A stretch of DNA of 64,000 bases from an uncultured Bacillota bacterium (GTDB lineage Bacteria > Bacillota_I > Bacilli_A > RF39 > UBA660), in NCBI GenBank assembly GCA_948466255.1, contig CAOJZV010000005.1:1155-65154 (forward strand), given 5' to 3'. The translations under genes were made by a program, and so were the position numbers. Below the pieces are notes generated by a model. It ran no database searches and had not been told where the DNA came from. It saw only the letters and a list, made by a program, of their open reading frames with translations. Positions 2,789 to 53,287 of this stretch are shown piece after piece. Position 1 is the stretch's first letter. Each line of letters opens with the position of its first letter.

Positions 2789-3313
2789 CTATAAATACTT
2801 ATCTAATAATTCTTTAACAATCGATTTATATTCTACATCAGTACTTTCCTCAGCTTCAATTAAACATAAAGGAGGAAACAATACACACCACCAATTATCA
2901 CCTTTACCTTCACCTAAAGTAACTAATAAAGATTCATAATATCCTTCTTCATATTTCACACCTTTATATTCCTTCTCAGGAAAATAATTCATTCCAAAAT
3001 TAACATCATAATTTTTATTATATTTTTCCCTTTCTAAAACTTGACCTACATTATTTTTAATAGAATCTAAATTTTCTAAGATAACTTTTCTAGCATCACC
3101 GCTACTTTTTGTATCTTTTAACAAATTATACATAGAAGTTTGAAGTTCATCACGAACTTTACCTTTTACCTTTTGGTCATAGTCAGAATTACTATTAGGC
3201 ACAACCCTAATTCTAATTGCATCTTCTGGAATTTCTATGTTTTTTGCCATTACATCAGAAATAATAAAATAAAAACCAAATATAAATAACAATAAAATAA
3301 TAGTCTTTTTCAT
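2789..3313 (-). CDS. spoIIR: stage II sporulation protein R
   Basis: signal peptide; IRIRVVPNSNSD and GDNWWCVLFPPLC motifs match B. subtilis SpoIIR (IRLRILANSDSD / GANWWCVLFPPLC). Confidence 0.75.
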   Translation of the reverse strand: MKKTIILLLFIFGFYFIISDVMAKNIEIPEDAIRIRVVPNSNSDYDQKVKGKVRDELQTSMYNLLKDTKSSGDARKVILENLDSIKNNVGQVLEREKYNKNYDVNFGMNYFPEKEYKGVKYEEGYYESLLVTLGEGKGDNWWCVLFPPLCLIEAEESTDVEYKSIVKELLDKYL

Positions 3314-8961: not shown

Positions 8962-9876
8962 CTATTTTAGTTCTTCTATTTCTTCTTTAGTTAAACCTGT
9001 AACTTTTGTTATTGTTTCAATATCAATGTTTTCTGCAAGCATGTTTTTAGCTATTTCTATCTTTTCTTCTTTTTTGCCTTCAATTTTCCCTTCGATTTTT
9101 CCTTCCTCTTGGGCATTACTAATTTTTTCATACTCTACCAAAGCATCTAGCTTTTCTTTTTCCCATTCATGTAAAACAAATTCATCTTTACTCATTCTTA
9201 TCACATCTCCTATAAACTTATCTAATTCGTTTTCTTCTAAGATGTTTCTTAATATATCATAAATTTCTGTAAATGTCTTGGCTGTTAAAGCAGCTAACCA
9301 TACTGTTTCTTCTTCTCTATCTCCATTATAATATAACTTTCTATATACTTCAAGATATTTTAAAACAATCACAAAATTTTCATGATATACTTCTTTTTTT
9401 GTTATATCATAAGGTACTATTATGTTTTCTTTTCTGCCATAATTTTTCCCTCTTGTATTTATATTTAATTGAAATAAGTATACATCTTTTAATTTAGATA
9501 CTTTTTCCCCTTTTTCTAAAAGTGTTGAAAATAGTTTTGTTTGTAATAAAAAATTTCTTAATTTTACATTTTTAAATTGTTCTGTATTTATTTCTACTGA
9601 TATATGCATATTATCATTTAATATTGCATGCATATCTACCACCTTTTGATACTCTTTATGATTTTCCTTTAAAAGTTCATTTGGCCCAAAAGTCATTTTA
9701 GTATCTTCTGGTAGTTTTTCTAAATGTAAAGACGATATTATTAATCTTTTTAAAGCGTTTTTATTTGATAGAAATATTCCTTTAAAACAAGGATCAAAAA
9801 CAATTGGAATAAGTTTACAAGTTTTATCTAATTCTACTAAATCTTCTCTAGTATAAATAGATTGTGTATCAGTCAT
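8962..9876 (-). mobile_element. Rpn-family recombination-promoting nuclease / PD-(D/E)XK putative transposase
   Basis: N-terminal DPCFKGIF block and C-terminal EGKIEGKIEGKKEEKIEIAKNMLAENIDIETITKVTGLTKEEIEEL tail are typical of the PF12784/TIGR01784 putative-transposase family. Confidence 0.65.
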
Positions 9877-9981
9877 ATAATCACCATCCTTTCATTTGTC
9901 ATGACTGATTAGGAAGGTAAATTTTACCTTCGTATATATCCTACTGTTTTTCTATATCAAATTCCTTCTTAAAAACGAAAA

Positions 9982-10003
9982 AAATTGCAAAAAAATGCAA
10001 TTT
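9982..10003 (-). terminator. Rho-independent terminator (minus strand) after the 146-aa gene
   Basis: inverted repeat AAATTGCA-N6-TGCAATTT followed on the minus-strand transcript by UUUUUCGUUUUU. Confidence 0.5.
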
Positions 10004-10013
10004 CTTTATTTTT

Positions 10014-10454
10014 TTAACTCTCAATTACTTTATATTTAACTTTAGATAAATCTATTTTTACTGATGCAGTTATTGTTCTTGTTTCTCCTGCTTTCATAGG
10101 ATTCCCAATATAACCATGTAAAACAACTATAGAATTACCATTTTTATCTTTCAAATTAATATTTACTTTTTCAATATTAATTTCTTCTTGTGTTGGATTA
10201 GTTACATCCATCGATAAAGTATATTGTTTACCATCTTTAATCAAAGTAGTATTAGTAAAATTTAAGTTGCCAAATGTTTCGTCTTTTATAATACCTTGTT
10301 CTGTAATAGCTTCTTTATAATCAGTTTTTACCTTTTTTGTAGAAGTTTTATTATTATCTTTTATAATAAATAGTACTACAACTACAAAAACTAATATACT
10401 TATTATTAATAAACTTAATATGATTTTCTTATTTTTTAATTTTATTATTTTCAT
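10014..10454 (-). CDS. hypothetical membrane-anchored protein, co-transcribed downstream of the 817-aa surface protein
   Basis: 146 aa; single N-terminal TM helix; RBS GAGGAGAA 7 nt before the ATG; no recognisable motifs. Confidence 0.5.
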   Translation of the reverse strand: MKIIKLKNKKIILSLLIISILVFVVVVLFIIKDNNKTSTKKVKTDYKEAITEQGIIKDETFGNLNFTNTTLIKDGKQYTLSMDVTNPTQEEINIEKVNINLKDKNGNSIVVLHGYIGNPMKAGETRTITASVKIDLSKVKYKVIES

Positions 10455-10586
10455 AAATGTTCTCCTCGTATAATATTATATTGCTTATATTAGGCAAGGG
10501 ATAAAAGTATAACATTATTACCTATATTTAAAATATTCAATTTGTGATTATATTAAGTGTTTCTATAACAAATATCCATTTTAATT

Positions 10587-13040
10587 TTAGCTTCTATTTG
10601 TATAATTATATGTTTTTCCAGTTAATTTAACATAATCTACATCGCAAAGAAGATATTGATAGTTTGAAAGCAACTGTACCCCAATATAATAATTACCAGT
10701 AAGCTTTGAAATATCTAGCTCAAGGGCAGGATTACTGCCTCCAGCAGGTATTGTTTTGGAAGTGTAGTTTCCTTTTTCGTGTACCCATGATGAACGTGAC
10801 GAAACAACCCCCAACATAAGATAAGCTTCCCGTACCCCCTCATGACAATAATGATAGGTAGATATTTTACTATAATCATCTAATGAGTAGCTGCTTGTAC
10901 TTGTTATTTGACCTCTGGCGTTATCTGTTGTCATAGGCTCAAAAAAATAATAATAAAGATTCTCATTGTAATTAATATCCATCCTTGCTCCATCGAACAA
11001 ATTCCCGCTAAATTTGCCGGCACCACTAATTTTATATAATTCAAATATAGTTAAATCATCCTTTTTCCATGTAGGATAAACTGTGGCCTGACTGCAACCT
11101 GTATTTGAAACTTTAAATGACTTAGTACTACTATTTATTGTTTGGCTTGTTGAATTATTACATACTATTGTAGCCCCTTGATAAGTAAACCCACTACTTG
11201 GGGTTGCTGTAAAAGTTATTGTTTCAGTATAAGATGCTAATGTCTTTGATAAACTAATGCTTCCTCCTCTTACTGTTCCTGCTGATAATCCATATTTTAT
11301 AGTTGGTGTATAACTACTACTTACTGTATTTTTTCCATCACTTACTGTTCCAGATAATGTTCCTGAAGCAGTAAATAATACATTTACGGTTGTACTTGTT
11401 ACATTTACTGCTGTTCCACTATCTTTTTTATATGTACATGTATATGTACTTCCACATCCTGATGGATATGTTATTGTTACTGTACTTTTACCTGCTTCTT
11501 GTGTTTCTTTATAAGTTGGTACTGCTATTGCATTTGGCTGTACTGATGTACTTGCTGATGTTGTTGTTTTTCCTATACCTGATGTTACTCTTACCTGTAT
11601 TGGATATGACTTTGTATTATCTAAGTTGTTAAAAGTATATGTCTTATTTGTTCCGTTATTTACCCATGTATTTCCGCCATCATTACTAAACTCATATTTT
11701 GTTATTCCACTTGTTGCGGATGCTGTTGCGACTACAGTTATTGACTTTGTTGTTTTTGATGTAGCAACTGATAATGTTGGAGCGTTTTTATCTATCTTTA
11801 CTTGGGTTGTCGATTCGTTTGATATATTTCCTTCTTTATCTATAGCTCTAAATCTAATTGTTTCATTTCTATTAACAGTATAAGTTATTGTTGTTTGTTC
11901 ATTTGATGTTGTTAGAGCTCTAGTTGTCCAAGCATCATTTTCATACCACTCATATCTATCTATTCCACTTCCTTCATCGGTTGATTCTAAGGTTATTATT
12001 ACATCATTAGATGTCCAATCACCATTTGAACTATTTGTTATTGTTGGTGCTGATGGTTTTATATCATCTACAGCTTTGGCAGTTAACGTTATATTTTGAT
12101 TTATGTTTATTTTATCTCCTGCATTTCCTACTTTTGTTTCACCATTATACCAGCCTTGTATTGTATAGCCAGGTGCTGTTATAGATGGTAATGTTAATTC
12201 ACAGTTTGTATCATTATTATATAAATAACATGTTTCATTTTCTTTTCCAATACTGCTTATTCCATTATCTTTTGTATAACTTACTGATAAGCCTTTTCTA
12301 AATATGGCATATAGTGTTGTATTTTGTGATGGCATATTTAATGTTTCTAATCCTTCTTTAGCATCTTTATTTGTATTCCAACCTACAAATTCATATCCTT
12401 CTTTATCAGCTGTTTCACTTAAATCTATACTTTCATTTTCTGGTGAATAATAACTTTCATTTGGTCCATATGTCCCACCATTTGTTTGATAGTCAAATGT
12501 TAATAAATAATCATTTGTTGGAACTATTGTTCCTCCTTCTGCTTGAGCATAATTTAAATCTATACTTGTTTCTGCACTTCCTTCAGTTATAGTTCCTGTA
12601 AATTCTGGATTATATTCTATTTTTACTTTTATTATTTGTTCATTTCCCTTTAATAGTTTTTCTCCCTTGGTATATCCTGATATAGTTATTAATAGAGCTT
12701 CATTTTGGGTTTTTATATTTTTATTTATATTATCTAATTTTGCATCTATTGTTCCATTATTTTTAACTGTTACATTGTATTCTATAGAATCGCCTTTTTG
12801 ATATAGATTTGCTTCCATATAAGCTGTTAAATCTGTCCATATTGGGGCTTTTGCTTCTTCTGCATCTCCTGTTTGATTTGCTTTTGTTACATTTATTATT
12901 TTTATATCCCAATTACTTGTTATACTTGTTGTCCCATTTATTTTTAGAATACTTTGAAAAGTGGCATATCCTACTGACATAATTAATAATAAACCACATA
13001 AAATTCCGATGATTACTGTATTTTTTCTTCTTTCTCTCAT
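10587..13040 (-). CDS. large secreted/surface protein with TasA/camelysin-like (SipW-cognate-like) signal, Listeria-Bacteroides-type repeats and Ig-like domains
   Basis: likely start at MRERRKN (GGAGAA RBS); basic N-terminus, hydrophobic helix, then VGYATFQS (compare TasA GGGTWAAFND, CalY GGGTFAYFSD); two GY(E/T)FxGW repeat motifs; S/T/N-rich Ig-like repeats; no LPXTG. Confidence 0.55.
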   Translation of the reverse strand: MRERRKNTVIIGILCGLLLIMSVGYATFQSILKINGTTSITSNWDIKIINVTKANQTGDAEEAKAPIWTDLTAYMEANLYQKGDSIEYNVTVKNNGTIDAKLDNINKNIKTQNEALLITISGYTKGEKLLKGNEQIIKVKIEYNPEFTGTITEGSAETSIDLNYAQAEGGTIVPTNDYLLTFDYQTNGGTYGPNESYYSPENESIDLSETADKEGYEFVGWNTNKDAKEGLETLNMPSQNTTLYAIFRKGLSVSYTKDNGISSIGKENETCYLYNNDTNCELTLPSITAPGYTIQGWYNGETKVGNAGDKININQNITLTAKAVDDIKPSAPTITNSSNGDWTSNDVIITLESTDEGSGIDRYEWYENDAWTTRALTTSNEQTTITYTVNRNETIRFRAIDKEGNISNESTTQVKIDKNAPTLSVATSKTTKSITVVATASATSGITKYEFSNDGGNTWVNNGTNKTYTFNNLDNTKSYPIQVRVTSGIGKTTTSASTSVQPNAIAVPTYKETQEAGKSTVTITYPSGCGSTYTCTYKKDSGTAVNVTSTTVNVLFTASGTLSGTVSDGKNTVSSSYTPTIKYGLSAGTVRGGSISLSKTLASYTETITFTATPSSGFTYQGATIVCNNSTSQTINSSTKSFKVSNTGCSQATVYPTWKKDDLTIFELYKISGAGKFSGNLFDGARMDINYNENLYYYFFEPMTTDNARGQITSTSSYSLDDYSKISTYHYCHEGVREAYLMLGVVSSRSSWVHEKGNYTSKTIPAGGSNPALELDISKLTGNYYIGVQLLSNYQYLLCDVDYVKLTGKTYNYTNRS

Positions 13041-13115
13041 ATATTTCTCCATTGCTTTTATTTTATAAACTTTAAAATCTGTGATATATTTTGCTAACAT
13101 TACATACACCAAACC

Positions 13116-21184: not shown

Positions 21185-23107
21185 CTATTGTTTATCAATT
21201 TTGAAATTAGCCTGATAGCTATTACCTAAATCAATTTCATCAACATCAATTTTATAACCTAATCTTTCGATTTGATCAGCACAATTTCTAATTAAACGAA
21301 TTACTTCAATAAAATTATTATTTGTTGATTCAATAGCAGAAGAATTATTAACATTACTATTCATAACATCTGGAGTTGGGGCTTCTAAAATATCTGAATC
21401 TGGGATGTTGGTCATAACTGGCTCTGGAACTGCTGGAACAACAGATTCTGGAGTTGGTTGAATAGTCTGAGTTACAGGTTCTACCATTTGTATTGGTTCT
21501 GCCGGAACTTCTTCTATCAATGGTTGTTCTGGAATATTAAATGCCTCTGGAGTAATAGGTGCTTGATTTTGAACTAATTCACTATAAAGTGGTGATTGTT
21601 GTCCTTCGCTTTCATTATTTATCAAAGTTTTTGGCTGAATCGTATCCGTTCTTGGCATAACAATTGGTTCTACCACAGACTCCATTGGTTGCTCCTGTGG
21701 AATTGATGATACATTTTCTTGTACAGGTTGAATTACAGGTTCTGGATTTATTGTTTCCACATTAGGAGAAACTATAGATTCTTCTGGTAATTGTGAATTC
21801 ATTGCATTTTTTACTGCTTCCGCAATACTAACTCCCTCTGTTTCCGATAATGTTTCTACTTCAGGTGCTTCATTAGATGTTATTGGTTGTTCTGAAACAA
21901 TATTTTCTACAGGTTTATCTAATTGCTCAGAATTTGGTATAGACTGAGTTACAGTTTCTGTATTAGTTGGTTGTAAGTTAGAAGGTAATTGATTAAATAT
22001 ACTATCAAAACTTGCTTCATCGCTTGCTGGAACACTTGGTGTTTCTACTTTTTGTTTTTCTTCTGGTTGAACAATTCCACTAAAATTAACAAATTTATTT
22101 TGATCATCATTTACCAAAGGAATTTCACTTTCAGTTGATGGTTCTATTTCAGAAATAATTGGTTCTACTGGATTAGTAGGCATCTCAAAAACATTATTGT
22201 CATTTTTCATAAGTTCAGAAATATCTTTATTTTCTTCTGGTACATTAATATCTTGAGCTTCTCTCATAATTTTATCTATATCCATACCCTTTTCATCCTT
22301 TCTCATTAAGTTTTCTTCTATTTCTTTTGGTAAACTAACTCTAATAATTTCATGACTACCTCTAGGAACAGCCTTTTTTGGCTTATTTATTGGTTCATCA
22401 GCCCCAAATAATTCTTCAACTGGTTCTGATTTGATAAAATTTGGTTTCTTTATTTCTTTTTCAGTGATTGTTTCCTTTTCTGGAATAATCACTTCTTTAT
22501 CTTTTTCTAACACATCTCTAATTGCTTCATCTGTTTTCTTAACAGTTAGTCTTTCATTTATAATCCTATTAAGCATTTCTATTTGTTTGTTTCTATCATT
22601 TAACCTTAATAAAGATCTTGCATGTCTTTCTGAAATTTTTCCATTCAAAAGAGCATACTGAACTTGGTCATCCAAATTAAGTAATCTTACTTTATTAGCA
22701 ATTGTAGATTGCGTTTTTCCTAATTTTTCCGCTAATTGAACTTGTGTAATATAACCCATATCTAATATTCTTTTATATGATACAGCTTCTTCAATAGGAG
22801 TTAAATTTTGTCTTTGTACATTTTCAAGTAAAGCTATTTCTTCACTTTCTTTATCATTTAAGTTTATAATAATAGCAGGGATAGTACTTTTATTAGCAAT
22901 TTTACTAGCTTTATATCTTCTTTCACCAGCAATTATTTCATATTTATCACCAATTTGACGAACAACGATTGGTTGAATTACACCATATTTACGAATAGAT
23001 TCAGCAAGTTCATTTAATTTTGTTTCATCAAAATGAATACGTGGTTGAAATCTATTTGGTAAAACATCTTCAATATTTAGTGTATTTAAATTGCCATATT
23101 CATACAT
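21185..23107 (-). CDS. parB: ParB/Spo0J-family chromosome partitioning protein with about 390-aa low-complexity P/E/Q/S/V-rich linker
   Basis: N-terminal ParB box GERRYKAS and HTH; 640 aa (typical ParB about 280 aa); sits at the conserved rsmG-adjacent position; no ParA/Soj gene adjacent. Confidence 0.8.
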   Translation of the reverse strand: MYEYGNLNTLNIEDVLPNRFQPRIHFDETKLNELAESIRKYGVIQPIVVRQIGDKYEIIAGERRYKASKIANKSTIPAIIINLNDKESEEIALLENVQRQNLTPIEEAVSYKRILDMGYITQVQLAEKLGKTQSTIANKVRLLNLDDQVQYALLNGKISERHARSLLRLNDRNKQIEMLNRIINERLTVKKTDEAIRDVLEKDKEVIIPEKETITEKEIKKPNFIKSEPVEELFGADEPINKPKKAVPRGSHEIIRVSLPKEIEENLMRKDEKGMDIDKIMREAQDINVPEENKDISELMKNDNNVFEMPTNPVEPIISEIEPSTESEIPLVNDDQNKFVNFSGIVQPEEKQKVETPSVPASDEASFDSIFNQLPSNLQPTNTETVTQSIPNSEQLDKPVENIVSEQPITSNEAPEVETLSETEGVSIAEAVKNAMNSQLPEESIVSPNVETINPEPVIQPVQENVSSIPQEQPMESVVEPIVMPRTDTIQPKTLINNESEGQQSPLYSELVQNQAPITPEAFNIPEQPLIEEVPAEPIQMVEPVTQTIQPTPESVVPAVPEPVMTNIPDSDILEAPTPDVMNSNVNNSSAIESTNNNFIEVIRLIRNCADQIERLGYKIDVDEIDLGNSYQANFKIDKQ

Positions 23108-29915: not shown

Positions 29916-30001
29916 GATATTCACTCCTCTCAGAATAATTTTTTTCGTTGCTTTATTAATTATATAGATAAAAGCCTTATTTGTCAATCTTTTTTTAGTT
30001 T

Positions 30002-30246
30002 TTATCACTTTTCCACATATCAAAATTTACCTAAATAGTCTTATTTTATTTTTATCACAAAATTTTCCACCATATTTTTTAAATATTTTAATATGTTTAT
30101 TCCTTTTTCAACATATGTGGATAACTTTATTTTTATTCTTATTGTTGATAATTACTTTTTCCACATTTACTGTGGAAAAAAGCTATTTTTGATTAAATTT
30201 TCACTATTTTTACCCTGTGGATATCTTTTTTTTAGTTTTTTCCACA
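30002..30246. promoter_or_regulatory. oriC part 1: cluster of at least 7 DnaA boxes upstream of dnaA
   Basis: matches to TTATCCACA/TGTGGATAA: TGTGGATAA perfect at 30117-30125; TTTTCCACA at 30010, 30157, 30238; TGTGGAAAA at 30171; TGTGGATAT at 30216; weaker TTATCAC boxes at 30002 and 30052. Confidence 0.75.
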
Positions 30247-30320
30247 GTTTTTATAGCTTTTTCATTAAAAATAATGTAAAATAATGTTAATAACTTTTAT
30301 ACAATTAGTGGGGGATACTT

Positions 30321-31658
30321 ATGGATTTAGAGAATATTTGGAATGTTTTTTTGGCCAAAGTAGAAGAAAAGGTAAAACCTGTTCTTTTTGAAACTTGGTT
30401 TAAAGATACAAAATTAATAAACTTAACCGATGATACTGCAACAATCAAAGTATCATGGGAAATTCAAAAAAAACATTTAAAAGAAAATTATAATGAATTA
30501 ATTAAAGAAACATTTATGGATGTTACAGGTTCTATTTTTAATTTTGATTATACAACAGATGAAGAAGTAACTAAAAAAGAAGAAATAAAAGAAAATAATG
30601 AAGCTATCTTTGAAAGTGGATTAGATAGTAAATATACTTTTGATAACTTTATTTCTGGGGAAAGTAATAAATTTGCGAAAGCTATTGGACTTGCTGTTGC
30701 TGAAAAACCTGGAAGTATGTACAATCCATTATTTATATATGGTAATAGTGGACTTGGGAAAACCCATTTAATGCATGCAATAGGTAATTATATTACAAAT
30801 AATTCTAATAAAAAAGTATTATATGTTACAAGTGAAAAATTTGTAGATGATTTTCTAAGTTTATATAGAAAAAATGAAAATAATTTTAAAGCTGTGGATA
30901 ATTTTAAAAGAAAATATCGTGATATAGATGTATTAATGATTGATGATATTCAATATTTAGAAATCGCTAGTAAAACCCAACAAGAATTTTTTAATACATT
31001 TAATGAATTACATACCCAAAACAAACAAATTATTATTTCTTCCGATAGAACACCAGATGATTTAAAAAAATTAGAAGATAGATTAAGAACAAGATTTAAT
31101 TGGGGATTAACTATTGATATTCTTCCACCAGATTTTGACTTAAGAATGGCAATAATTGATCAAAAATTAAAAACAGAAGCTCATGATATTCAAAATTTTG
31201 TTCATGATGATGTTAAAGAATATATCGCAAATAACTTTAATACCGATATTAGAACAATAGAAGGAGCAGTAGTTAGAATCGTCGCATATGCAACTATTAT
31301 GAATGCTCCTGAAATAAATCTAGACTTCGCTGTTGAAGCTTTAAGAGATCGCCTAGGTAAAAATATAATATCAAAAAATAAAATAGATAAAGTAATTAGA
31401 ATTATTGCAGATAATTATAATTTGACAGTTGAAGATTTAAAAAGTAAAAAAAGGTTAGCAAAAATTGCCGTACCAAGACAAATTGGAATGTATATTTGTC
31501 GTACACACTTAAAAGAATCCTTACCAAAAATAGGTAGTGAATTTGGTGGTAAAGACCATACAACAGTAATACATTCTGTAGATAAAATAAAAAAAGAAAT
31601 AGAAAAAGATAAAACATTAGAAGAGGAAATAAATAAATTAATTGCCAAAATAGGATAG
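30321..31658 (+). CDS. dnaA: chromosomal replication initiator protein
   Basis: 445 aa; AAA+ Walker A GNSGLGKTHL; C-terminal DNA-binding domain. Confidence 0.95.
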   Translation: MDLENIWNVFLAKVEEKVKPVLFETWFKDTKLINLTDDTATIKVSWEIQKKHLKENYNELIKETFMDVTGSIFNFDYTTDEEVTKKEEIKENNEAIFESGLDSKYTFDNFISGESNKFAKAIGLAVAEKPGSMYNPLFIYGNSGLGKTHLMHAIGNYITNNSNKKVLYVTSEKFVDDFLSLYRKNENNFKAVDNFKRKYRDIDVLMIDDIQYLEIASKTQQEFFNTFNELHTQNKQIIISSDRTPDDLKKLEDRLRTRFNWGLTIDILPPDFDLRMAIIDQKLKTEAHDIQNFVHDDVKEYIANNFNTDIRTIEGAVVRIVAYATIMNAPEINLDFAVEALRDRLGKNIISKNKIDKVIRIIADNYNLTVEDLKSKKRLAKIAVPRQIGMYICRTHLKESLPKIGSEFGGKDHTTVIHSVDKIKKEIEKDKTLEEEINKLIAKIG

Positions 31659-31672
31659 GGGAAAAATATTTC

Positions 31673-31790
31673 TTTTCCACATATTTCCCACACAACAAAA
31701 AATAGTAATTATTACTTAAAAATAAATGGAAAATAAACTTTTCCACACAATCCACATCAATAATAAAAATATAATTAAATAAATAAAAAC
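31673..31790. promoter_or_regulatory. oriC part 2: DnaA boxes plus AT-rich putative unwinding element between dnaA and dnaN
   Basis: TTTTCCACA at 31673 and 31739, TTTCCCACA at 31685, ATCCACA at 31751, followed by a stretch above 90% AT (31757-31790) ending at the dnaN RBS. Confidence 0.6.
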
Positions 31791-31807: not shown

Positions 31808-32929
31808 ATGAAATTAGAAATAAAACAAGAAGTTCTTTTAGAACATTTAAATTACGTTATAAAGGGAATATCAACAAAAAATTTAAGACCTATTTTAAAC
31901 TGTATAAAATTTGAATTAACTAATGATGGTTTATATTTAATGAGTACTGATAATGAAATAGCCATTAAAACATTTATCGATAAAAGCGAAATTGAAAAAA
32001 TAGATACTTGCGGAGAAATAGTTGTATCTGGTAGATATATATATGAAATAGTAAGAAAATTACCAAATGAAGTTATTAATATAGAAGAAGTGATTGATTC
32101 TAAAATATATATAACAACAACAAATTCATCATTTAATTTAAATTGTAATGATGTATCAGAATTTCCAAATTTAGAATTAGAATATAAAAAAGACCCTATA
32201 GTATTAAACCAAAAGGTATTTAAAACTATTATAAATCAAACCGCTTTTGCAACATCAACAGGTGAATCTAGACCAGTATTAACAGGTATCAACTTCAAAA
32301 TAGATAAAAATATTATGGAATGTACCGCCACTGATTCATATCGTTTAGCTATTAAAAAAATAGAATTATCAAATGAACAAACTGAAAATATTAACATAAT
32401 TATTCCTACTAAAAATCTAAATGAAATAGTAAAATTAATGAATGAAGATGAAGAAAACCTAGAAATGCACATTTTTAACAATAAAGTAATCTTTAAATTT
32501 AACACACTTACAATTATGACAAGATTAATTAGTGGTACATATCCAGATACATCAAAATTAATTCCAGAAGACTTTACTTTAACAATAAAAGTTAAATTAA
32601 TGGATTTCTTTAATGCTATTGATAGAGCTTCACTTTTAACAAATGAAAGCGATAAAAATACAATTAAATTTGAAAGTAAAGAAAATACAGTATTAATTTC
32701 ATCAAACATTCCAGAAATAGGTAATGTAAAAGAAACTATTACTGTGGAAAAAAATAATGACGAAAATATCAAAATATCTTTTAATTCAAAATTTATGTTA
32801 GATGCTGTAAGAGTATTAGAATCTGATGAAATAGAATTATTATTTAATGGAGAATTTAAACCAATTATAATTAAAAATCCAGAAAGTGATGATTTAATTC
32901 AACTAATATTACCAATTAGAACTTATTAA
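31808..32929 (+). CDS. dnaN: DNA polymerase III beta sliding clamp
   Basis: 373 aa; conserved dnaA-dnaN order. Confidence 0.95.
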   Translation: MKLEIKQEVLLEHLNYVIKGISTKNLRPILNCIKFELTNDGLYLMSTDNEIAIKTFIDKSEIEKIDTCGEIVVSGRYIYEIVRKLPNEVINIEEVIDSKIYITTTNSSFNLNCNDVSEFPNLELEYKKDPIVLNQKVFKTIINQTAFATSTGESRPVLTGINFKIDKNIMECTATDSYRLAIKKIELSNEQTENINIIIPTKNLNEIVKLMNEDEENLEMHIFNNKVIFKFNTLTIMTRLISGTYPDTSKLIPEDFTLTIKVKLMDFFNAIDRASLLTNESDKNTIKFESKENTVLISSNIPEIGNVKETITVEKNNDENIKISFNSKFMLDAVRVLESDEIELLFNGEFKPIIIKNPESDDLIQLILPIRTY

Positions 32930-33050
32930 AAGTTCTTTTTTTTTTACAAAAAATTTAATTTTACGACAAATATTGATAATTTTTGACAAACAAAATGTGT
33001 ATAAGAGAAGCATCAGATTTTTTTATCTGATTAGAAACAGGGGGAAATAT

Positions 33051-33503
33051 ATGAATGAATACGAAATTACAAGTGAAACATGTGCTTTAATATCTGTAAG
33101 TGAAAATGCAACTGAAGTAATAGAATTAGGTAAGAAATTTATTATTGAAGATAAACTAACAGATATATTAAAAAGAAGCTGTGAATTTTATGGATGTACA
33201 TTAGAAGGAAGAATAAAAGGAAGCCAAATGCAATTAGGAATGAAATATAAATTGCCAATTATCATTGAAAATACAAAAGAAATTATCTTTTTTCCAACTT
33301 CATCACCTAGATTAGAAAATTGTAGTTGGATTTCTTTAAAAAATATCAAAAATTATGAAGAAAATAGATTTGGATCAATCATAGAATTTATAGATGATAA
33401 TAAATTAATTTTACCAATTTCACTAGAATCACTTGAAAATCAGATATTTAGAGCTACAAAATTAATGTTAATTTCACGTAAACGCAGTAAAATGGAAAAA
33501 TAG
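33051..33503 (+). CDS. comK: ComK-like competence transcription factor
   Basis: likely start MNEYEI (RBS AGGGGGAAATAT); SCEFYGCTLEGRIKG, KLPIIIENTKEIIFFPTSSPRLENCSWIS and ILPISLESLENQIFRATKL align with B. subtilis ComK (SCRFFGSSYAGRKAG, KPPIMVDPSNQIFLFPTLSSTRPQCGWIS, ELPISYNSFENQVYRTAWL). Confidence 0.6.
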   Translation: MNEYEITSETCALISVSENATEVIELGKKFIIEDKLTDILKRSCEFYGCTLEGRIKGSQMQLGMKYKLPIIIENTKEIIFFPTSSPRLENCSWISLKNIKNYEENRFGSIIEFIDDNKLILPISLESLENQIFRATKLMLISRKRSKMEK

Positions 33504-33528
33504 ACATAGATATTGTCTATTTTTTTGC
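33497..33528 (+). terminator. Rho-independent terminator after the comK-like gene
   Basis: ATAGACA-tagatat-TGTCTAT hairpin followed by TTTTTTT. Confidence 0.55.
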
Positions 33529-33630
33529 TTATTTTAGCCATTTTTATGGTATAATGGTTATAGGGTATAGGAGTACTATTAAGGTAGTTTTTTTTCGCTA
33601 CAGTCCAAAAAAAACGAAAAGAGGGAAATC

Positions 33631-34743
33631 ATGATACTAAAAAACATTGAAGTTACTAATTTTAGAAATTATGAAAACCTTAAACTCACCTTAAATAAAA
33701 ATACTAACATTATTTATGGTGATAATGGTGGGGGGAAAACAAATATATTAGAAAGTATTTTTGTGCTTGCTCTTACTAAATCTCATAGAGCTTTATCCCA
33801 AAGTGACTTAATAACTAGTGGAAAAGAAAATACTTTAATTAAGGGGACTATACTAAATGAAATACCTTATAATCTTGAACTGACCTTAACTAAAACAAAA
33901 AAGCAAGTAAAAATTGATAATAATCCTGTAAGTAAAATAGGGGATTATATCAGTATGATGAATATCATTATTTTTTATTCTAATGATTTAGAACTTATAA
34001 GAGGGCTTCCAAGTAATCGAAGAAAGTATTTAAATCTGCAGTTAAGTCAAATTTCGAAAAATTATTATAATACTTTAAATGATTATAATAAACTTTTAAA
34101 AATCAGAAATGATTATTTAAAAAAAATAAGTAATAATGAGCCTATTGATGAGGGTTACTTTGAAATTTTAACTGATTATCTAATTGAAAGAAGTATCTTT
34201 ATTTACCAAATGCGTGAAAAATATATAGAAAGATTAAATAAAATTTGTCCTGATATATATAAAGATATAACTGGAAACGATAATTTTAAAATAAAGTATT
34301 TGCCATCTATAACTTTTGAAAATATGGAAAAAGATACAATAAGGTCAGAAATGAAAAAAGTATTAAATGAAAATAAAGAAAAAGAAATAAAACTAAAATC
34401 AACGCTTTTTGGACCACATCGTGATGATTTTGAATTTCATCTAGAAGATAATAATTTAAAAAATTATGGTTCACAAGGCCAACAAAGAGTTGCTGTTTTA
34501 TCACTTAAACTTTCAGAAATACAAATATTCAAAGATTATAAAAAAAATAATCCAATTATTTTATTAGATGATGTGTTTAGTGAACTAGATCATGTTAAAA
34601 AAAATAATTTATTAAAATATATCGATAATGATATGCAAGTAATTATAACAACAACTGATCTAGATAATATTGATGAAAATATTAAGAAAAAAGCTAAATT
34701 AATCAACATAAAACATGGAAAAATAGTAGAAGAGGTGAAATAA
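33631..34743 (+). CDS. recF: DNA replication and repair protein RecF
   Basis: 370 aa; Walker [10 protein letters not shown]; SMC-like signature; conserved position before gyrB. Confidence 0.9.
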
Positions 34744-39489: not shown

Positions 39490-39535
39490 TTATAATAGTT
39501 TGCCTTTTTTTATAAAATCATATATCATTATTAAT

Positions 39536-39608
39536 GGCACAACATTTATGTTCGAACCAGGTCAGAATCGGAAGATAGCAGCCTTAAGAATCTCTAAATG
39601 TGTGTGCC
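39536..39608 (+). ncRNA. ffs: small SRP RNA (4.5S/scRNA-type, about 73 nt)
   Basis: CCAGGUCAGAAUCGGAAGAUAGCAGCC matches the conserved domain IV of bacterial SRP RNA (CCAGGUCAGGUCCGGAAGGAAGCAGCC); closing helix GGCACA/UGUGCC plus ACAUUUA/UAAAUGU; followed by UUUUAUU; same neighbourhood (tadA, dnaX) as B. subtilis scr. Confidence 0.7.
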
Positions 39609-39627
39609 TTTTATTATAGGTGATAAT

Positions 39628-52521: not shown

Positions 52522-53043
52522 ATGAAAGCAACAGGTGTCGTAAGAAGAATAGATGATTTAGGTAGAATAGTTATACCAAAAGAAATAAGAAAAACTTTAA
52601 GATTAAAAAATGGTGAAAATTTAGAAATATTTGTAGATGAAAACGAAAACATTATTTTAAAGAAATATAGTCAAATAGATAAATTAAAAGAATTTGCTGG
52701 TCAAATTACCGAAGCTATAAATAATGTTACCAAAAAATCAGTTTTCATTATAAATACAGATTCTTTTGTATCCATAAGCGGAAAGAAGAAAGAATATCTT
52801 AATAAACCAATCTCAAATGAATTAATTGAAATGATAAATAATCGTCACGAAATAAAAAATCAATATCAAGTTCAAATGACAGAAGAAAAAATAGAAAACG
52901 AAAATATAGCATTTTGTCCAATAATAATAAACGGAGATGCGATAGGAGCAATAATGATGATGTCAAAGGATGAAGTAACAGAAACTGATTTTCAAACACT
53001 AAAAATAATTTCTAGCTTTTTAACCAAACATATTGAAGATTAA
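52522..53043 (+). CDS. spoVT: stage V sporulation protein T (AbrB-N + GAF-like)
   Basis: MKATGVVRRIDDLGRIVIPKEIRKTLRLKNGENLEIFVD is near-identical to B. subtilis SpoVT; 173 aa; conserved mfd-spoVT linkage. Confidence 0.85.
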   Translation: MKATGVVRRIDDLGRIVIPKEIRKTLRLKNGENLEIFVDENENIILKKYSQIDKLKEFAGQITEAINNVTKKSVFIINTDSFVSISGKKKEYLNKPISNELIEMINNRHEIKNQYQVQMTEEKIENENIAFCPIIINGDAIGAIMMMSKDEVTETDFQTLKIISSFLTKHIED

Positions 53044-53061: not shown

Positions 53062-53099
53062 TAACAGGAAAAAAGCGAAGAAAGAGAGAAAAATAGGTG

Positions 53100-53287
53100 A
53101 CTTTATAGAGAGTTTATGGTTGGTGGAAATAAACAAGGTGACTATTGGAAATGGCTCTAGAGCTTCTAAACCAAATAATTAAGTTTAGACGTAAGCATGC
53201 GTTAAATGTTTAAGGTAAGTATAATGCTTACAAATTAAGGTGGTACCACGTTCATCACGTCCTTATTTTTAAGGACGTTTTTTTATT
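53100..53287 (+). promoter_or_regulatory. T-box riboswitch leader (probable Met specifier AUG) with intrinsic terminator, preceding dut-DHH-metG
   Basis: AAUUAAGGUGGUACCACG (53233-53250) matches the T-box consensus AAUUAGGGUGGNACCGCG. Antiterminator: UAAGG[UGGUACC]ACG...CGUCCUUA. Terminator ACGUCCUUA-uuuuu-AAGGACGU plus U-tract at 53257-53287. Stem I has AGAGAG and AUG at 53151-53153 in specifier position. Confidence 0.7.

Follow-up and report, generated by a model that had tools for sequence, protein, structure and literature searches.

A short-form ComK-family gene held between dnaN and recF beside the replication origin of uncultured low-GC Bacilli

Introduction

ComK is the master switch of natural transformation in Bacillus and has been studied almost solely in a few cultured Bacillales. 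The Bacillus subtilis protein carries a C-terminal tail that holds the MecA/ClpC degron FMLYPKEERT...GERY (PMC8138137), and as summarised in PMC3128618, removal of the 25 C-terminal residues abolishes activation of comGA and leaves DNA binding intact. At the promoter of B. subtilis comK (PcomK), Spo0A~P acts directly via five 0A-like sites, three of them activating and two repressing (PMC3297582), and the core of the 0A box is TGTCGAA (PMC3485338). Shorter proteins of the family, termed ComK2, have also been described: that of B. cereus lacks the same C-terminal region and lowers comG expression (PMC3128618), and that of Staphylococcus aureus is a shorter form that represses transformation genes under strong oxygen limitation (PMC12491500). 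Here we describe a short-form ComK-family gene (hereafter comK; positions 33051-33503, plus strand) in a 64,000-nucleotide stretch of DNA, called the window throughout, from an uncultured Bacillota bacterium of the lineage RF39; UBA660 (assembly GCA_948466255.1, contig CAOJZV010000005.1, positions 1,155 to 65,154).

The gene lies between dnaN and recF in the replication-origin cluster, and this placement is previously undescribed and deeply conserved. Literature searches that combined ComK with RF39, dnaN-recF with ComK, and RF39 with comEC returned no prior description of the arrangement, and a detailed paper on these bacterial orders makes no mention of ComK or competence. The reading that we favour, with somewhat better than even confidence, is that comK encodes a vertically inherited, Spo0A-gated short-form ComK regulator that would switch a stationary-phase regulon for DNA uptake and recombination.

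The window protein is a short member of the ComK family

The first-pass annotation of this DNA had called the gene ComK-like on the basis of three blocks shared with B. subtilis ComK. The Pfam profile ComK (PF06338) bore this out with a full-length match (E = 4.3e-38) that spans profile positions 2-151 of 152 and scores 130.9 bits, above the curated cut-off of 22.3. BLASTP against the Bacillus ComK cluster P0121, which is 97% identical to the B. subtilis ComK sequence used to find it, gave 30% identity over 142 amino acids (aa) with E = 5e-23. All three of the blocks that had been pointed out were visible in this alignment, and in the window protein they read RSCxFxG..GR..G, PI....I.FPT.S.....C.WIS and LPIS..S.ENQ..R...L. 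Seventeen columns were invariant in a 62-sequence alignment that included five Bacillaceae ComKs, four from Bacillus and one from Fredinandcohnia. By its sequence, comK is a genuine ComK-family gene and a new member of a known family.

Other profile and sequence searches with the comK protein were negative. No NCBIfam model matched even at E up to 10, so the curated models of NCBI would leave the protein unnamed. Pfam at E up to 10 yielded ComK alone, with no S4 domain, and a sequence search of the PDB gave chance-level matches only, with no ComK structure among them.

Scanning one genome per species gave a set of 64 loci from 64 assemblies (L001-L064), and the open reading frame (ORF) was intact in nearly all of them at about 145-156 aa. 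The ratio of nonsynonymous to synonymous substitution rates (dN/dS) of comK was 0.035-0.16 for unsaturated pairs, which indicates purifying selection.

The window protein is 150 aa long, compared with 192 aa for B. subtilis ComK. Its residues 1-138 align to residues 9-150 of the B. subtilis protein and are followed by 12 basic residues, after which the chain ends without the C-terminal tail of about 30-40 residues (the B. subtilis degron starts near residue 168). Judged by its sequence, the protein resembles those of the ComK2 type in being short and in lacking the activation/degron tail. Given the missing tail and the ComK2 precedents, the function of a competence activator cannot be assumed.

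We regard it as possible, though clearly short of probable, that the protein is a DNA-binding regulator of this second kind, which represses uptake genes or runs a secondary stationary-phase or stress regulon and is no master activator of competence; the presence of comK would then not predict transformability, and 'ComK' annotations in metagenome-assembled genomes (MAGs) would be no evidence of competence. The absence of the region that B. subtilis ComK needs for activation argues for this, as do the similarly short, repressing ComK2 of S. aureus, the lack of conserved K-boxes (ComK-binding sites) upstream of comK, the lack of an NCBIfam match and the hypothetical label that homologues carry in several NCBI records. 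However, there is apparently one ComK-family gene per genome (64 loci in 64 assemblies, in a scan limited to close relatives), whereas the ComK2 proteins of B. cereus and S. aureus work beside a long ComK1. Short forms also dominate the family, which comprises 875 clusters at 50% identity (E up to 1e-3): among the best 148 of the 875 representatives, 95 were 140-160 aa long and 27 were at least 175 aa. It may be, therefore, that the short architecture is the default of the family and no truncated derivative. Possibly the family descends from short ComKs, which would recognise DNA in a mode unlike that of the Bacillus K-box.

We modelled the comK protein with AlphaFold2 from the 62-sequence alignment (predicted local distance difference test 94.3, predicted template modelling score 0.88). 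The model, which is a confident one, combines a long C-terminal helix with a beta-rich domain that contains two helices. In a Foldseek search against the PDB, LytTR domains made up 9 of the 10 best matches and 10 of the 13 best, with a kinesin motor domain at rank 11. The LytTR neighbours were ComE (4cbv), AgrA (4xqn, 4g4k, 4xqj and 3bs1) and a B. cereus structure (3d6w), and the matches were weak (probability 0.80-0.97, E 0.03-0.26, template modelling score 0.27-0.57). The neighbours of the model fit a DNA-binding fold and agree with a 2026 preprint in which ComK falls by fold into one group with AgrA-LytTR, RemA and SwrD, and ComK may share its beta-fold with LytTR-type regulators of competence and quorum sensing (Streptococcus pneumoniae ComE and S. 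aureus AgrA).

comK is a separate transcription unit in the origin region

The window covers the replication-origin region of a genome with about 27% G+C, and the GC skew flips sign at about 30 kb. The gene order at the origin was rnpA-rpmH (minus strand), dnaA, dnaN, the comK ORF, recF, gyrB and gyrA. Classical DnaA boxes (TTTTCCACA / TTATCCACA), read directly from the sequence, formed the oriC cluster at 30000-30260, upstream of dnaA (30321-31658), and a second cluster at 31670-31760, between dnaA and dnaN. comK lies on the leading strand at about 1.3-3 kb from these clusters. Its upstream neighbour is dnaN (31808-32929, plus strand), which encodes the beta clamp of DNA polymerase III; an identical dnaN on a further contig (L065) showed three DNA_pol3_beta Pfam domains. 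Its downstream neighbour is recF (33631-34743, plus strand), and a recF gene identical to that of the window gave SMC_N/AAA_23 Pfam matches.

A 151-aa protein with its own ribosome-binding site and terminator had been reported between dnaN and recF. The ORF coordinates confirmed the position and the ORF is real; its product is 150 aa, the figure of 151 being reached by counting the stop codon. The ribosome-binding site, GGGGG at 33040-33044 (plus strand), was present as GGGGG or GGAGG in all loci. A terminator-like hairpin with U7 follows at 33495-33526 (plus strand; -10.9 kcal/mol, z = -5.5), and 0 of 200 shuffled sequences folded as well. On the other side, dnaN ends in a terminator-like hairpin (AGAACTT/AAGTTCT) with 9 T at 32918-32945 (plus strand; -5.6 kcal/mol, z = -2.6), and the relatives had a comparable hairpin and T-run after dnaN, so comK is insulated from dnaN. 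Since terminators stand on both flanks, comK is a monocistronic unit between dnaN and recF.

A generic promoter and terminator scan found neither a canonical -35/-10 pair nor a terminator at comK. Its rule of at least three G-C pairs skips AT-rich hairpins, which is why the terminators of comK and dnaN were missed, although both fold well against shuffled sequences. A longer ORF that starts with TTG at 32973 (176 aa) was rejected because every homologue begins M-x-x-YEI. Thirteen contigs from independent metagenome assemblies carry the exact comK protein with the same genes around it in the same order, so the arrangement is no assembly artefact.

The dnaN-comK-recF order is conserved across a large clade

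A search with the protein recovered 244 homologues of about 150 aa, nearly all of them from MAGs labelled 'Bacilli bacterium'. The titles of the 64 loci included Bacilli, Mollicutes, Tenericutes, Acholeplasma sp. CAG:878, UBA660 and UBA1423; the clade may correspond to lineages of the RF39/RFN20/ML615J-28 type. We compared the gene order of the loci by tblastn with the neighbour proteins of the window. The order dnaA-dnaN-comK-recF-gyrB-gyrA was present in about 50 of the 64 species-level loci and was kept down to identities of about 47-53% for DnaA, 44-51% for DnaN and 38-50% for RecF. Inserted genes, where present, sit between dnaN and comK, and comK therefore stays directly upstream of recF. 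We also examined an out-of-sample set of six more distant short homologues (P0213, P0216, P0239, P0293, P0225 and P0320; 32-37% identity) from an exhaustive search of the representatives, and all six were located between dnaN and recF. On these comparisons, dnaN-comK-recF is conserved throughout a large group of low-GC Bacilli without cultured members, and it is probably the ancestral order there. The view of the first-pass annotation that the gene is an unexpected insertion did not hold up, as the same order is kept even in distant relatives, where identity to the window proteins falls to 44-50% for DnaN and 32-35% for ComK.

In 14 of the 64 loci comK was located away from the origin (L015, L019, L021, L022, L030, L032, L036, L042, L045, L048, L054, L057, L060 and L061). 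Most of them apparently shared a second context, in which pcrA-ligA-comK precedes either gatCAB or cca-dnaD. It was confirmed by Pfam in L022 (pcrA, ligA and gatCAB) and L030 (ligA, cca and dnaD) and was assigned in the remaining non-origin loci from ORF sizes; in L042 the gene upstream of comK codes for a DUF2207 membrane protein and not for ligA. In a rough neighbour-joining tree the comK sequences of these 14 loci form a group inside the origin-type sequences, which suggests a relocation of the gene within one sub-lineage.

Vertical inheritance in a fixed place beside oriC and recF is the best-supported history of comK. A recent horizontal insertion, a prophage remnant or a decaying pseudogene in the slot of the Bacillus gene yaaA is effectively refuted by the synteny of about 50 of the 64 loci and by the dN/dS of 0.035-0.16. 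In favour of such an event, the comK gene of Listeria is a prophage attachment site, and comK stands here where Bacillus has an S4-domain gene. However, the synteny is deep and the purifying selection strong, no integrase or phage genes were found nearby, the composition of comK resembles that of its neighbours, and the identical gene recurs in independent assemblies.

Two further observations concern the loci. The second context again places comK among replication and repair genes. Many third-party annotation MAG contigs are titled 'uncultured Muribaculaceae bacterium' (L001, L007, L009, L011, L014, L017, L020 and others), and Bacteroidaceae and Vescimonas titles also occur on contigs with this low-GC Bacilli origin cluster; these titles look like taxonomic mislabels or mis-binning in public records.

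The comK promoter carries phased boxes of the 0A type

When the sequences upstream of comK in close relatives were aligned, they shared a fixed layout: three direct boxes at 10-bp intervals, a -10-like element, a stem-loop and then the ribosome-binding site. The corresponding boxes of the window, all on the plus strand, are TACGACA (32962-68), ATTGATA (32972-78) and TTTGACA (32982-88), which match TTCGACA at 6/7, 4/7 and 6/7 positions, respectively. On the opposite strand TTCGACA reads TGTCGAA, the Spo0A 0A box. Many relatives carry TTCGACA exactly, and in the locus L027 the array reads TTCGACA-aaa-AGCGACA-aat-TTCGACA.

We counted the boxes upstream of comK in 65 loci. Between positions -100 and -16, exact TTCGACA occurred 24 times in the forward and once in the reverse orientation, a 97-fold enrichment over the remainder of the loci. 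Allowing one mismatch gave 78-80 forward boxes in 49 of the 65 loci and 11 reverse boxes, against 1-2 in a downstream control region. The step from one box to the next was 10 bp in 15 cases and 20 bp in 11 (65 loci), and the boxes recurred in five of the six out-of-sample loci. In a scan of the window the sole 20-bp-phased pair of boxes with at most two mismatches was that of the comK promoter, and no further phased TTCGACA array was found in the 64 kb. With this single array, the window cannot separate Spo0A from ComK as the binder.

The -10 element, TATAAG at 33000-33005 (plus strand), lies within the conserved GTATAAGA, and both its position and its sequence are kept in the relatives. The last box stands at a fixed 11 nt before it in the window and relatives. 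Neither the promoter scan nor direct reading found a -35 hexamer at 17-bp spacing at the comK promoter, as expected for a factor-dependent promoter.

On the motif alone, Spo0A is the best candidate binder of these boxes. According to published genome surveys, sporulators that have spo0A are to be expected in RF39 and in some of RFN20 and ML615J-28 (PMC10868615). The window contains two sporulation genes, SpoIIR (PF09551) at 2789-3313 and SpoVT (SpoVT_C with an AbrB-type N-terminal domain) at 52522-53043, so the source lineage probably still sporulates; the earlier description of the source as a spore-former is consistent with both genes.

The boxes could instead be bound by the ComK-like protein itself in a positive autoregulatory loop, which we consider unlikely. 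B. subtilis ComK does activate its own promoter (PMC3297582), the nearest neighbours of the structural model are LytTR domains (ComE and AgrA) that bind direct repeats, and the boxes accompany comK in both genomic contexts. However, the core of the box matches the 0A box exactly and the head-to-tail spacing of 10 bp is that of tandem Spo0A sites, whereas the known ComK sites are AT-box dyads and LytTR repeats are 9 bp long and about 21 bp apart. The weakness of the Foldseek matches to LytTR also tells against this explanation.

A further explanation, which we consider very improbable, takes the boxes as divergent DnaA boxes and comK as belonging either to the DnaA regulon or to the dnaA operon; the protein would then be a replication-coupled regulator that ties initiation status to RecF-type repair and not to competence. 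comK does adjoin dnaA-dnaN and recF, or pcrA-ligA in the other lineage. TTTTCGACA and TTTTCCACA differ at one position, and a few loci (L005, L049 and L070) have TCCACA at the position of a box. However, the same genomes use TCCACA at oriC, yet TTWTCCACA, the DnaA box used there, was not enriched upstream of comK (1.4-fold, against 97-fold for TTCGACA), and terminators part comK from dnaN and recF. We rejected the boxes as DnaA boxes on this difference in enrichment and on the use of TTTTCCACA at oriC.

The promoter is followed by a stem-loop, AUCAGAU-U6-AUCUGAU, at 33012-33031 (plus strand; -6.8 kcal/mol, z = -2.3), which falls at, or close to, the point where the comK mRNA is predicted to begin. 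Its pairing is kept among close relatives and its sequence varies (ATCAGAT/ATCTGAT, GTCAG/CTGAC, ATCGAT/ATCGAT and TGTC/GACA), and z was below -1.5 in about 40% of the loci. This stem-loop may be an mRNA stabiliser.

K-boxes and competence genes

K-boxes and competence genes had been proposed as checks on a role in competence. We searched for K-boxes as two AAAAN5TTTT boxes 8, 18 or 31 bp apart. One K-box-like site of type I (AAAAN5TTTT-N8-AAAAN5TTTT, one mismatch) was found upstream of comK at 32928-32962 (plus strand). It overlaps the T-run of the dnaN terminator and is probably fortuitous. No site with 18-bp spacing was present in the 64-kb window. With up to two mismatches, K-box pairs occurred in 12 of 65 upstream regions compared with 7 of 65 downstream control regions. 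The K-box check thus proved uninformative, since the lone upstream site overlaps a terminator and is not conserved across the 65 loci.

We annotated about 50 further ORFs of the window with Pfam. They included genes for a dnaB-type helicase, uvrB, mfd, recR, dnaX, holB, a parB-like protein and mnmE/G, together with rsmG, yidC, jag, whiA, metS, ksgA and other genes of replication, repair and housekeeping.

The recF leader and other features of the window

The region downstream of the comK terminator holds a promoter that belongs to recF and not to comK. This promoter (TGgTATAAT, -10 at 33550-33555, within 33547-33600, plus strand) is followed by the element GGTATAGGAGTA at 33564-33575 (plus strand), which also belongs to recF and has a T-run next to it. 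The leader is strikingly conserved in the origin-type loci (for example at 5489-5548 of L027). Its layout is an extended -10 (TGnTATAAT) with AGGTATAGGAGTAC 8-10 nt later, and most lineages have a matching arm, ATACCTAT, and a T-run, which gives either a hairpin with a U-run or a palindromic operator. Each of 28 origin-type loci has one copy of the exact 12-mer GGTATAGGAGTA, as does the window. Rfam, searched with an E-value threshold, had no match in the intergenic regions, the recF leader among them, or in five of the loci. RNAalifold found a 4-bp stem only, with no covariation, and so established neither an RNA structure nor a DNA operator in the leader. The element may be an attenuator, a 5' stabiliser resembling a Shine-Dalgarno sequence or an operator.

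Several other features of the window were recorded. The ParB-like protein at 21185-23107 (minus strand) is unusually long, at 640 aa, with ParB_N and HTH_ParB within its first 200 residues, and no ParA/Soj gene was seen between its gene and rsmG. A T-box leader lies at 53069-53267 (plus strand), upstream of a string of dUTPase-like, DHHA1 and metS genes. The small signal recognition particle (SRP) RNA at 39526-39622 (plus strand) overlaps the listed start (39598) of a tadA-like deaminase ORF by about 25 nt, and the ORF therefore probably starts further downstream. The minus strand encodes a PD-(D/E)XK transposase-family protein at 8962-9876 and, at 10587-13112, a protein of 841 aa that contains a Listeria-Bacteroides repeat; these genes (8962-13112) break an otherwise Bacillus-like housekeeping order near rplI and dnaB.

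Discussion

We propose that transcription of comK would start at a good -10 element that has no -35, with up to three head-to-tail boxes in the place of the -35. Spo0A~P would gate the gene at stationary phase or on entry into sporulation, by comparison with B. subtilis PcomK, and the mRNA would begin with the small stem-loop. Because the activation/degron tail is absent, control of comK would be mainly transcriptional, without the protein-level switch of MecA-ClpCP-ComS. The short ComK would then bind AT-rich promoters and activate or repress a 'K-state'-like regulon for DNA uptake and recombination. By homology, this regulon is probably a stationary-phase programme.

Several observations weigh against this proposal. 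The three boxes of the window itself are degenerate, and in the ligA-linked sub-lineage an exact box was found in just 1 of 14 loci. The 3'-most box lies at about -30 to -24, where repression is as plausible as activation. K-boxes of the Bacillus type are not conserved upstream of comK, so canonical autoregulation is unsupported. The genes comG, comE, comF, dprA and ssbB were not found in the 64-kb window or in the annotated flanks, and comC and recA were likewise absent from the window. An activator role of the short ComK is doubtful, because in B. subtilis ComK activation of comGA needs the tail and because ComK2 proteins lower or repress competence genes. A Spo0A-gated short-form regulator nevertheless stays our favoured explanation, with either direction of control.

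In public sequence data the family occurs most often as the short form of about 150 aa, which is a fixed resident of the dnaA-dnaN-recF-gyrBA origin cluster in a large, gut-associated clade of uncultured Bacilli. Its conserved promoter, with phased boxes of the 0A type, opens a connection of Spo0A with ComK to direct testing outside Bacillus. If the protein drives DNA uptake, these uncultured lineages may be naturally transformable, with consequences for gene flow in the gut and for the genetic tractability of the lineages. The weight of the finding would rise if whole genomes show DNA-uptake genes under the control of comK.

A broader idea, which we put forward tentatively and hold to be rather unlikely, is that the short ComK is a Spo0A-wired developmental switch of an order-level clade of uncultured gut Bacilli with reduced genomes, held beside recF or ligA. 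Were this true, natural transformation or replication-coupled, K-state-like repair would be widespread in lineages that have never been cultured or manipulated genetically, and the coupling to replication would act via gene dosage at the origin.

Comparison with known systems

The closest described system is that of B. subtilis. The window protein belongs to the same Pfam family over the whole core at 30% identity, with the invariant residues in common, both genes are monocistronic, and both promoters have several 0A-type boxes. In contrast to the 192-aa B. subtilis protein with its activation/degron tail, the window protein is 150 aa without a tail, and no conserved K-box for autoregulation was found. 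Control by Spo0A~P was shown experimentally for PcomK and is predicted for the promoter of the window. The long-form homologue P0285 (188 aa) is found in a Bacillus-like context, unlike the window gene between dnaN and recF.

The ComK2 proteins of B. cereus and S. aureus resemble the window protein in architecture, being likewise short and devoid of the C-terminal helix or region that the long form has. ComK2 coexists with a long ComK1, whereas here one ComK-family gene per genome was detected in a scan limited to close relatives.

The origin order of Bacillus is dnaA-dnaN-yaaA-recF-yaaB-gyrB-gyrA, in which yaaA occupies the slot of comK. The two genes share this chromosomal slot, but their proteins are unrelated: YaaA is an S4-domain RNA-binding protein, and the only Pfam match of the window gene is ComK. 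Unlike Bacillus, the window has no yaaB/remB between recF and gyrB, as the stop codon of recF overlaps the start of gyrB.

The layout of the abrB and spoIIG promoters, with 0A boxes spaced by 10 bp, is familiar from Spo0A control. The comK promoter resembles those of abrB, spoIIG and PcomK in the TGTCGAA core, in the head-to-tail copies at 10 bp and in the weak or absent -35, and differs from them in that its putative 0A boxes are degenerate in the window.

In S. pneumoniae, the comCDE genes also place a competence-type regulator beside oriC, although the regulator is of another family. Replication stress in the pneumococcus reportedly raises the dosage of origin-proximal genes and so induces competence, as Slager et al. 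are said to have found in 2014. By analogy, it is possible that origin-proximal gene dosage affects comK as well.

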